Shown here one piece after another: positions 60,001-63,000 of a stretch of DNA of 64,000 bases. Source of the stretch: Gammaproteobacteria bacterium (lineage in GTDB: Bacteria > Pseudomonadota > Gammaproteobacteria > Coxiellales > Coxiellaceae); NCBI GenBank assembly GCA_030425685.1, contig JAUIAD010000017.1, forward strand, positions 1,324 to 65,323, read 5' to 3'. Numbering within the stretch: position 1 is the stretch's first letter; each line of letters opens with the position of its first letter. A program made the position numbers.

Positions 60001-63000
60001 ACCATTTCAAGGGCCATTTTGTTATCTAAATCGTTATCTAAATCGTTACCTAAGTGTTCTCTTTGTGTTAGCTTTATGTTGTCTAAGTGTTCTCTTTGTG
60101 TTATCTCATTGTTATCTAAGTGTTGTCTTTTTGTTATCTTAATGTTATCTATTTTGTTATCTAAATGACGGGTCTTTTGTTGCTCAGCTGGTGGTGCTGT
60201 AACCAGTGTTGGCTTTGGCTTTTCCACTTTTTCGACAACGGGTTTAGGGGCTGTTTTTTTAGGGGGCGTGTTGGCTTCGTTCTCGGCGACGGGCGCCTCG
60301 GTGTTTTCGCTATTGGGGTCTTCATTACCTGATAAATCCCACGGACGGTATTTCTTTTTGGTAAACTTTTTAGCTTTTCTACTCTGAAGTATTTCTTCTA
60401 ATTGAGGCATCCCTTACGTCCTCCCTCTCGCTATTCCGTCACACCGTAACGGCCGATTCTGTGGGCTCGTTAACGATTCGCTCTCTGTTGATTTGTGTGG
60501 GATCAATATCGAGTAATTCACGGCAGAGTCGATCAAAATCGTCGCGGGCTATGGATTTTTTTAATGTGCTAAATAAGCTACGGTTGGAGTCCGTGGTATT
60601 CGGAATCTCTTGGGCATATTGAACCGTGGTTGACAGCACCTTCCCTTCTAAGTCTGGATCTGAAATAAGTGAGACGATCGCTTTATCTGATAGGATAGTC
60701 TTGCCACTAAATTTATTTAAAAAGACTTTATAGGTAATATGACGTTTAAAGCGCCGGTTTAAGGTTTCAATTTCTTGCTTAAGAATTTTTAAGCCTTTAG
60801 CACTGAATTTATCAGGGTTTAACGGGGCTACAATCGTGTCTGCGTATAAGCTAGCGGCTGTGACCGCTTGTCCCATGGTGGGTGGACAATCGATAAAAAT
60901 AAAATCGTATCGATCGGCAATCGGTTCTAGGAGGTCGTGGTACAACGTATGCAACGGCAAGCGCTCATTGACAATAACATTATCTAAGACCACGTTCTCA
61001 ATACGACTAGCGATTAAATCAACGCCTTCAGAGATGGGTACAATGCTGTCTTCAACGTTGGCCTCCCCTTTGATGATATCAATTAGCACGGGGTATTCTT
61101 CAGCATCAACATCATTAGTGTCGGTTAAGTTACCTTGTGGGTCAGCATCAATTTTTAAAACGCGCGCGCCATAGGTGTTGGCACAGCTGGCTAAGTTTTC
61201 AATCGTTGTTGTTTTGCCTGTTCCCCCCTTCACAATTTGTCCAACGATCACTTTGGGTGTGAAGTGTAAATTAAATAATCGTTGGGCAATTTGGTGGGTA
61301 ATAAAAGATTTGTTGCCGGCTTTTGGACAGGACAAATTTTTATTCTTTAATTGCTTGTGAACGGCCTGAACAGATATTCCTAAAAATTCTGCGGCATGTG
61401 CAATAGACATTTTTGGTTGATTTATAAGAATGTCCTTATTTTGAAGATTCATTATAATCCCCTACCAGTTTAAACTCATAGTAAAATTATATGTTAATCT
61501 TAAACCGTGTCAAGTTTCTGATTATAGTATTTTTTAGAAATTATTCCTTGGCTTTTTTGTGTTATCTTATAGTTATCTATTTGTTACCTTTATGTTATCT
61601 TGTTGTTATCTTTTGTGTGTTATCCATATGTTACCTTAGTGTTATCTATTTGTTATCTCTATGTTATCTTTTAGTGGAGGTTTTATTTTTTTGTCTGTTA
61701 TTTCGGTATTGAGGAGTGTTATCTATATGTTATCTTATTGTTATCTTTAATACGCTCTTTTATTAAGCGACAAGCAAAATATATTATCTATTTTTATAAT
61801 TGTTATCTTTGTGTTATCTAAATAAAGGTGGTTTTTAATGCTATTAGCTCCCCTCTTTTGTTGAATTTTATTTTCATGTTATCTAAACGTTATCTATATG
61901 TTACCTTTGTTGCGTTATCTTTATGTTATCTTAATTGGCTCTTTGCGTTATCTTTTTGTTATCTATGTGTTATCTTAATGTTACCTGGTATTGTTATCTT
62001 TATGTTATCCAAGTGTTATCTTTTATAATTATGGAAAAGGTAATTCTTTAGAGTATTTTTCCATGGTGATCTACGTGGAACATAGCAAGAGTAGGCGAAT
62101 CGTCCCCATGAGCAGGGGACGAAGGTAGAATAGAACCGGCATTAAAAATGATAGGTCATGCCGCCGCTTAGCAGCCCAGCACCGGCAATTCCGTAGACGG
62201 CGCCTTGATACTGCGAGGTGATCTCAATATGTTTATTGACAGAATAGCCAACACCGAGTCCAACGTAAGGAAGAACCATACCGTCGGTTTCCGTTTTTGC
62301 CACAGGGTGATCTTGGTCAGGACCTCTCTTAATTGAGGTATAGGCATACATAGCGCCTGTTTTAGCAATAAATGTGAAGTGGTGACCTAGGGGGACATTA
62401 AAACGTGCACTAATATAAGGCAAGTTGGCATGTAGGGTTTGTTGGTGTTTAATACCATCGTCGCTGTAGGTTTGGTTGGCATAATTTTGCATAAAGCCAC
62501 CTTCGATGGCAGTGACATTGGTAAAGTTATAACCGATATTGCCATTCCAGCCATAGCCCTTTAGTCCAGCTGTTTGATAGTTTTCATGTGAGGAAAATAC
62601 ACCTGCATAATACAAAGTGCTACCGCCACTGCCTTCGACATAAATTTGATGCGCATGTTGATTAGCAATGCTGGGTAACGATGGGGTGCTTGCTAAAGCA
62701 CCTTGTGCAATTAATAGGCTGGCTGTAAGTAGTAGTGATGACATTCTCTTCATGATATTCTCATTTCGGTTATGATTGGTTAAGGATTGCCATCGTACAA
62801 AAGTTAATTTAGAATAAAAATAGAAATAAAGAGAACTAATTGTTTCTAACAAAGGTGAAATGATGGCGGTTGAGATTGATCATATTTTGACTTTTATTAA
62901 GGTCGTAGAGCAAGGCAGTTTTACTGCGGCGGCAGATGCGTTACGGGTATCGAAATCGGTCGTTAGTAAACATGTAACTTCTTTGGAAGAGGCATTGGGT

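Follow-up and report, generated by a model that had tools for sequence, protein, structure and literature searches.

A winged-helix protein encoded after parA and its heptamer repeats as a candidate replication-partition cassette on a Coxiellaceae contig

In bacteriophage lambda, the binding sites of the initiator O are located inside the initiator gene, in codons of an interdomain linker, and an AT-rich stretch and a palindrome come after the iterons of ori; among lambdoid phages, the N-terminal DNA-binding part of O co-varies with the iterons as a cassette, whereas the C-terminal part is conserved. In plasmid R1, parC consists of clustered direct 11-bp iterons beside the operon promoter and serves as both centromere and operator, with a single adaptor polymerizing along the iterons. 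Plasmids with RepA_N initiators (pAD1, pSK41) and repABC plasmids, with the initiator RepC, have the origin within the initiator coding sequence; in addition, pAD1 has short direct-repeat arrays beside its partition genes, and repABC combines partition and replication genes in one operon. Here, we analyzed a 64,000-nucleotide stretch (hereafter, the window) from a member of the Coxiellaceae (Gammaproteobacteria bacterium, assembly GCA_030425685.1, contig JAUIAD010000017.1, positions 1,324 to 65,323 of the forward strand), in which a parA gene is preceded by an array of direct GTTATCT heptamers and followed by a gene, designated X, that contains the same heptamers (Table 1). The arrangements listed above have counterparts at this locus. 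As in lambda, the repeats of X lie in linker codons and are followed by an AT-rich stretch with a palindrome, and the DNA-binding domain and the repeats change together. As in R1, direct 11-bp iterons are clustered beside the operon promoter, and we propose for them the same dual role of centromere and operator, with a single adaptor assembling along the iterons. The origin-within-initiator-gene arrangement is matched by X at the sequence level, by 16 repeat units, an AT-rich palindrome and the GC-skew minimum; the repeats beside parA resemble those of pAD1, and partition and replication functions would share an operon, as in repABC. We consider it somewhat probable that ParA, X and the sites form a combined replication-partition cassette, in which the intergenic array is the partition and regulatory site. 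The presence of the sites inside X as well, beside a likely origin, points to a module for plasmid maintenance that is common among Legionella-like bacteria. This preference for a combined cassette is based on anatomy: the small in-gene cluster with its palindrome looks like an origin, and the large array looks like a centromere and operator.

The intergenic array (61561-62021, plus strand) consists of 27 heptamers of the GTTATCT type, namely, 21 exact units and six in-register units with one mismatch (GTTACCT in four cases and GTTATCC in two). The recount agrees with the first-pass annotation, which had reported about 27 same-strand heptamers in clusters of 10, 3, 2, 5 and 7, spaced mostly by 11 bp: there are 22 start-to-start steps within clusters, 18 of which are 11 bp long, two are 14 bp, one is 13 bp and one is 22 bp. 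Two isolated one-mismatch units are located between clusters (61697 and 61783), and no minus-strand units were seen in the region 61561-62021. Tandem Repeats Finder reported periods of 11 and 22 for the array. Exact GTTATCT occurs 45 times in the whole window, compared to 8.4 +/- 3.0 in shuffled sequences, with a shuffle maximum of 16. The array had also been described as filling the gap before parA; its intergenic location was upheld, whereas its extent is 461 bp of the 689 bp between the ATG of parA (61452) and the stop codon of the upstream neighbor (62142). The parA-X operon is presumably transcribed from a sigma-70 promoter that agrees with the consensus at 12 of 12 positions and has no equal in 58900-62200; the near edge of the array is 48 bp away from it, and the parA ATG follows 34 bp downstream. 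Related loci have homologous arrays in front of parA, whose cores differ by lineage and whose copy numbers range from 7 to 42. This comparison argues that the array is part of the parA operon, as initially suggested, and that it is an iteron-type array of protein-binding sites rather than a clustered regularly interspaced short palindromic repeats (CRISPR) array. A CRISPR array is built from 24-48-bp repeats with unique spacers of similar length; here, the cores are 7 bp long, the gaps are 4 bp and there are no spacers, and this candidate was rejected. Across the family, the claim that the heptamers are locked to one helical turn fails: some lineages have a period of 11 bp, others, including many relatives, have one of 12 bp, and therefore exact helical phasing is not the conserved property. 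Moreover, a turn of B-DNA is not precisely 11 bp long.

The system extends well into the coding sequence of X. There are 10 exact heptamers inside X, on the plus strand as in the intergenic array, and 16 units if those with one mismatch are included. The first-pass annotation had counted the intergenic units correctly and missed the exact matches in the 436-amino-acid (aa) open reading frame (ORF); what it described was the intergenic third of the system, without the 16 units inside X and the AT-rich palindrome. In-gene array 1 encodes the 11-aa peptide repeats "LDN / KIT / RQH" of a linker predicted to be disordered, and in-gene array 2 encodes LDNDLDNNTDN, in a second such linker. Because the 11-bp period is not a multiple of three, the in-gene units fall in different reading frames. 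The coding-strand unit AGATAAC can be read in three ways: (i) as D-N; (ii) as I-T; (iii) as AGA-TAA, which includes a stop codon. All exact in-gene units are in the two non-stop frames, whereas all three units in the stop frame (60122, 60089 and 60056) have T4 replaced by C or G, resulting in R-Q or R-E. In 11 loci with AGATAAC or AGGTAAC cores, position 4 was changed in 12 of 12 frame-0 units, but in only 6 of the 43 units that have mismatches in the remaining frames. The stop-avoiding substitutions, in combination with an 11-bp period read in three frames, show that the repeat is maintained as DNA. These data bear on the notion that the array is a non-functional satellite, produced by slippage or by copying of the repetitive coding segment of X into the spacer. 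The repeats are short and prone to slippage, and X is split at the repeat in two loci (L062 and L063); nevertheless, we consider a satellite very improbable, since the array keeps the same position, a single orientation and the 11/12-bp phase in many divergent lineages, its core changes in step with the winged helix of X, and the frame-specific substitutions show that the DNA motif is under constraint. The split X genes (L062, 1576-2842; L063, 3887-5248) each consist of a 110-117-aa ORF with the N-terminal peptide and the repeats and an ORF of about 300 aa with the winged helix and the C-terminal domain. In both loci the break falls among the iterons, which is what a frameshift caused by gain or loss of one 11-bp unit would produce; the split may be a true allele or an artifact of assembly.

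We compared the repeats upstream of parA and inside X in about 50 related loci, in most of which parA is directly upstream of the X homolog. One and the same hexamer is the commonest both within 1 kb upstream of parA and inside X, and it varies by lineage: GATAAC, which the window shares with many other loci, GGTAAC in L007, GATATC in Legionella pneumophila pLPL-type plasmids and their relatives, GAAATC, GGTTCA and AGGAAC in other groups, and GAGACA, inverted upstream, in L043. None of 10,000 permutations reproduced this pairing of upstream and in-gene hexamers. Three IMG/VR viral contigs (L064, L068 and L071) are informative here: they agree in the N-terminal 40 residues of ParA and in the X N-terminus, and their X C-terminal domains are nearly identical, whereas their winged helices differ and their in-gene repeats differ as well (TGGAGTCA in 21 copies, GTACTCAAA in 22 copies and GATCCAAA in 17 copies, respectively). 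These contigs represent a natural swap of the winged helix with its repeat cassette, the strongest indirect sign that the winged helix reads the repeat. Thus, the earlier suggestion that the array is probably bound by the winged-helix product of the gene after parA gains support both from the co-varying hexamer and from proteins that differ in the winged helix only and have different repeats; X most likely binds all three heptamer clusters. The 17-31 repeat units of the three viral contigs are all inside X, with none upstream of parA, indicating that the in-gene array can be the sole array and that linker length is set by the number of DNA sites. Two loci have upstream repeats of other kinds: 14 copies of a 12-bp tandem repeat (GTCATGG..TATCGT) in L011, where the in-gene repeat is GATAAC, and about 18 copies of TAGGTATCAAT in L028, where there is no clear in-gene repeat.

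In the window, the perfect palindrome TAATAATAATAT-TATTT-ATATTATTATTA sits in a 40-bp stretch of 100% A+T (59601-59640) abutting in-gene array 2; no other stretch in 58-63 kb reaches 87.5% A+T. Of 30 loci, 20 have a perfect inverted repeat, with arms of 8-16 bp and an AT loop of 5-19 nt, in the equivalent position, immediately behind in-gene array 2 and with some 10 codons left to the C-terminal domain. Its usual form in relatives is TAGTAGTAGTA...TACTACTACTA, encoding SSS...TTT. In the window palindrome, G-to-A changes in one arm are paired with C-to-T changes in the other, and further compensated variants are present in other loci. The compensated changes indicate that the palindrome is conserved and the peptide is not. 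We propose that the palindrome is the unwinding or initiation element of the origin.

The GC skew points to the same region. The cumulative minimum of the window is 190 bp from the palindrome, and its maximum is at 21439, 38 kb from the minimum. The skew is negative over 21-59 kb, whatever the gene orientation; it turns positive at 59.4 kb and stays so to at least 70.4 kb (70410), and it is also positive across 1-21 kb. On the 79,373-bp contig, the resulting two arms of approximately 38 and 41 kb fit bidirectional replication from about 59.4 kb. Among six complete plasmids with parA-X, the detrended skew minimum is in or at X in three (Table 1). We infer from the skew that the origin is in X rather than in the intergenic array. 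A more conventional interpretation is that the intergenic array is oriV and X is a classical iteron-binding initiator that melts DNA in one of the inter-cluster spacers, with the in-gene copies as auxiliary or control sites. The layout of iterons upstream of a maintenance operon is usual for origins, the skew changes sign some 2 kb or less from the array, and no other Rep candidate was found in the window. Furthermore, on the Coxiella burnetii plasmid QpH1, where partition and replication genes are in one operon, iteron-like repeats upstream of parA have been proposed as the origin (bioRxiv 10.1101/2020.03.22.001875). However, in each of the four informative replicons (the window and the three plasmids), with the operon on either strand, the skew minimum is on that side of parA where X lies, and the intergenic region lacks both stretches of 87.5% A+T or more and any notable inverted repeat, containing only a weak 12-nt palindrome at 61462-61481. 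Besides, typical origins have far fewer sites than 27-29, and the viral-contig relatives without an upstream array keep the in-gene array and the palindrome. An intergenic oriV therefore appears rather unlikely. It should be noted that the only DnaA-box-like site in the array, at 61620 (one mismatch), is itself an iteron variant; the window contains 31 such sites in total.

If ParA, X and the sites do form a replication-partition cassette, each winged helix of X would bind one heptamer, and the proteins would align head-to-tail along the 11-bp repeats. A partition complex would form on the 27-29 intergenic sites and be passed to ParA via the basic N-terminal peptide of X; the same array-bound complex, upstream of the consensus promoter, would repress the parA-X operon. 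Replication would begin about 2 kb away, inside X, where three heptamers abut the 100%-AT palindrome in codons of a disordered linker. The 13-unit in-gene array would widen the binding field, and some relatives have the in-gene array alone.

Several observations weigh against this reading. The ParA-adaptor role of the N-terminal peptide is deduced from its conservation and position, and it would be unusual for one protein to be both initiator and centromere binder. No homology of X to a known initiator or ParB is detectable, the PHROG matches to initiators are weak, and its C-terminal domain matches no solved fold. The window palindrome consists entirely of A and T and folds no better than shuffled sequences (z = -1.35); since the folding energy is not significant, the support for the palindrome is comparative only. 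The skew minimum is away from X in the L. israelensis, P. salmonis 48.7-kb and Cardinium plasmids (two of these three are rich in insertion sequences, and the Cardinium one is a metagenome-assembled genome (MAG)), and the resolution of GC skew is only about 1 kb. In L011 and L028, the upstream array motif differs from the in-gene motif. Finally, the complete canonical ParB encoded at 47628-48425 (minus strand; ParB_N, HTH_ParB and ParB_C), 12 kb away and the only ParB in the window, could in principle partner ParA; there is no ParA gene adjacent to it.

This ParB is central to another alternative, in which the array is a copy-number or incompatibility element of the P1 incA or F incC type that titrates X or acts by handcuffing and has no partition role, ParA being served by another adaptor, such as that ParB. 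Many iterons outside the minimal origin are a hallmark of such loci, a canonical ParB is present in the window, and the array copy number ranges widely among relatives. Nonetheless, X directly follows parA in nearly all loci, with no conserved ParB near parA-X in related loci; no canonical parS was found in the window; and the near-invariant basic peptide and long disordered linker of X are the usual build of a ParA adaptor. A role in copy control is, moreover, compatible with the replication-partition cassette, because centromere, origin and copy control are not mutually exclusive roles for the array. As an explanation that does without partition, copy control is improbable in our opinion.

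The structure of X was predicted using AlphaFold2 with 40 homologs, and a short N-terminal helix was predicted in addition to the regions in Table 1. The N-terminal 28 residues are nearly invariant (MPQLxxLxxKRKFxKKxYRPWDLSG), and the KKxYRPW peptide is conserved across the X family. Searches of X against Pfam, NCBIfam and PDB sequences produced no family assignment and only weak generic winged-helix (TrmB/MarR) matches; in particular, no ribbon-helix-helix (RHH) domain was detected in X, no ParB domain was found in Pfam or NCBIfam, there was no RepA_N or RepC family match, and neither X nor its 40 homologs matched Rep_3, the model showing one winged helix. With the full model, Foldseek retrieved a generic MarR-like winged helix; for the confident model of the C-terminal domain, it found no PDB match with E < 1. 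In PHROG, members of the X family have weak matches to replication-initiation (E from 1e-3 to 4e-5), DnaD-like and O-like proteins. The family comprises 1,868 representatives (50% identity, E <= 1e-3), with homologs on plasmids of Legionella, Piscirickettsia, Cardinium and Cysteiniphilum, in Rickettsiella, Coxiellaceae, Bacteroidota and other MAGs, and on viral contigs; no published description of it was found in the searchable literature. One family member, on a phage-like contig (L060), is a short X that lacks the N-terminal peptide, has no ParA and adjoins a Rep_3 gene. We tentatively suggest, with somewhat more doubt than conviction, that X founds a so far undescribed replicon family of Legionella, Piscirickettsia, Coxiellaceae, Rickettsiella, Bacteroidota symbionts and phage-plasmids, in which one polypeptide would be initiator and ParA adaptor, the sites and the origin palindrome would be written in three frames into its own linker codons, and specificity would change by swapping of the winged helix with the iterons.

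No Rep was found among all window ORFs of at least 120 aa in Pfam scans, and there is no annotated replication protein on the six complete parA-X plasmids, one of which, conjugative and 33 kb long, otherwise carries mainly transfer genes. For the P. salmonis plasmids pPSLF89-2 and pPSLF89-3, a rep gene could not be found (PMC6963756). The only visible maintenance function of L056 (NZ_CP039233.1), a P. salmonis phage-plasmid of 41 kb that has genes for head and tail, is parA-X.

The differences from the described systems are as follows. Lambda has four 19-bp iterons, compared to 7-bp cores with an 11/12-bp period here, 16 in X and 27 outside; unlike O, X shares an operon with ParA and carries an additional N-terminal peptide, the homology signal is weak (one family member matches PHROG "O-like", E = 0.003), and the C-terminal domain of X has no known fold. 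Membership in the R1 parC/ParR/ParM class, to which the first-pass annotation had likened the array, is not supported: R1 combines the actin-like ParM with the small RHH protein ParR and 10 sites, whereas here a Walker-type ParA provides the ATPase, the likely binder has 436 aa with a MarR/TrmB-like winged helix and no detected RHH, there are 27 sites, and sites are also found in coding DNA. RepA_N and RepC systems use one protein for initiation and another for binding the centromere, whereas here a single gene follows parA; beyond weak scattered PHROG matches, X has no sequence or fold homology to O, RepA_N or RepC proteins. P1 (incC/incA) and F (incB/incC) resemble the X sites in that one Rep-binding repeat occurs in several clusters with roles in origin function, autoregulation and copy control; they differ in that the iterons are 19 bp long and none is coding, the initiators are of the Rep_3 type with two winged helices, and ParB and parS are separate. 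More generally, Rep_3 iteron plasmids (pPS10, F RepE, R6K pi, P1 RepA) encode Rep3_N and Rep3_C domains, which were not detected in X, and have a few 17-22-bp iterons with an AT-rich region and DnaA boxes, compared to 7-bp cores here, three of which abut a 100%-AT stretch.

Among partition systems, pSM19035 omega/delta is similar in having contiguous 7-bp repeats upstream of promoters that are bound cooperatively by an adaptor-repressor; however, omega is a 71-aa RHH protein, its heptads have no gaps, and the ParA of the window has an N-terminal extension. Other type Ib systems (TP228 parFGH, pB171 par2), like pSM19035, combine a short ParA with a small RHH adaptor, which is not the case here, although arrays of short repeats upstream of parA, here a proposed centromere/operator, are shared. 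In type Ia ParABS systems (P1 par, F sop), ParB is encoded after parA and the centromere, with inverted-repeat or box motifs, is downstream of parB; here, X has no ParB domain and the direct heptamers are upstream of parA and inside X. QpH1 is likewise a Legionellales plasmid with repeats upstream of parA, but it encodes a separate ParB-like protein (CBUA0038) and a Rep_3 protein (CBUA0039); a relationship of X to either was considered and rejected, as no homology was found. As an analogy only, Epstein-Barr virus oriP/EBNA1 also has one protein acting on a large repeat family for segregation and a small dyad for initiation, in a eukaryotic virus, with an unrelated protein and chromosome tethering.

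Iteron arrays, centromere-operators and origins inside genes are already known kinds of elements. What appears to be new is the X family, the 7-bp/11-bp iterons in three frames of disordered-linker codons, the coding palindrome and the possible union of initiator and ParA adaptor. Plasmids of Legionella and Piscirickettsia, as well as many of those found in intracellular symbionts, lack a recognized rep gene (for P. salmonis, see PMC6963756), and the complete plasmids that we examined offer only parA-X as a candidate. If X and its heptamers are a replicon, they could be used for replicon typing, prediction of incompatibility and shuttle vectors for bacteria that are hard to manipulate. The locus is also a clear case of overlapping codes, with an 11-bp array in an ORF showing stop-avoiding changes and a palindrome that is kept while the peptide alters, suggesting that disordered linkers can serve as free space for cis-acting DNA elements. 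Should X serve in both initiation and partition, bacteria would have their own counterpart of EBNA1/oriP.

Table 1. Coordinates of the parA-X locus in the window, regions of protein X (residue numbers) and skew minima of related plasmids (plasmid coordinates)
Feature	Position	Strand	Details
Array cluster of 10	61561-61669	+	
Array cluster of 3	61718-61746	+	
Array cluster of 2	61802-61819	+	
Array cluster of 5	61878-61931	+	
Array cluster of 7	61947-62021	+	
Sigma-70 promoter	61486-61513	-	TTGACA-16 nt-TATAAT
parA	60439-61452	-	Walker-type partition ATPase, 337 aa; AAA_31 2.6e-34, CbiA
Gene X	59100-60410	-	436 aa; downstream of parA
In-gene array 1	60021-60162	+	13 consecutive units, 11/12-bp spacing
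In-gene array 2	59649-59679	+	3 exact units, 12-bp spacing
Perfect palindrome	59606-59634		encodes NNN...III
Cumulative GC-skew minimum	59415		inferred replication origin
Outer-membrane beta-barrel gene	62142-62852	-	3' end faces the array
X, N-terminal peptide	1-28		conserved, basic
X, disordered linker	33-127		encoded by in-gene array 1
X, winged helix	126-213		confident model, MarR-like by Foldseek
X, long helix	after winged helix		
X, disordered linker	249-268		encoded by in-gene array 2 and AT-rich element
X, C-terminal domain	273-433		novel, all-helical; predicted local distance difference test score 95.6
Skew minimum, L. pneumophila 56-kb plasmid	34108		X at 33447-34844
Skew minimum, L. 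pneumophila 33-kb plasmid	13153		X at 11932-13116
Skew minimum, P. salmonis 41-kb phage-plasmid	2188		X at 1008-2489

The ATPase domain of ParA begins at about residue 67, leaving an N-terminal extension of about 65 aa that reads like a helix-turn-helix, and the ParA_partition match is below the cutoff. A small imperfect palindrome (CTACCAGTTTAAACTCATAG, 61462-61481) between the -10 box and the start codon of parA is a possible operator for this helix-turn-helix-like N-terminus. Directly downstream of X, on the same strand, are genes for a DksA/TraR-type zinc-finger protein and a Fis-family protein (58271-59044, minus strand), an adjacency that is not kept in other loci. A search of 58-63 kb for known RNA families (Rfam) produced only one sub-threshold match, Histone3: the histone 3' untranslated region stem-loop at 59512-59557 (minus strand) scored 22.9 bits versus a gathering score of 34 and is almost certainly spurious.

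Elsewhere in the window, a 2,470-aa ORF (50484-57896, minus strand) with an N-terminal SQ repeat and no Pfam domain has the look of a large Legionella-type effector. An RVT_1 gene followed by an overlapping 669-aa ORF that belongs to no family (25793-29210, plus strand) may be a defense-type reverse transcriptase system. A YcaO cyclodehydratase cluster (5221-11571, plus strand) includes a nitroreductase-family protein, two CAAX-protease-like genes and an ATP-binding cassette transporter, and resembles clusters for ribosomally synthesized and post-translationally modified peptides; the 56-kb L. pneumophila parA-X plasmid has a YcaO/TfuA cluster, too.

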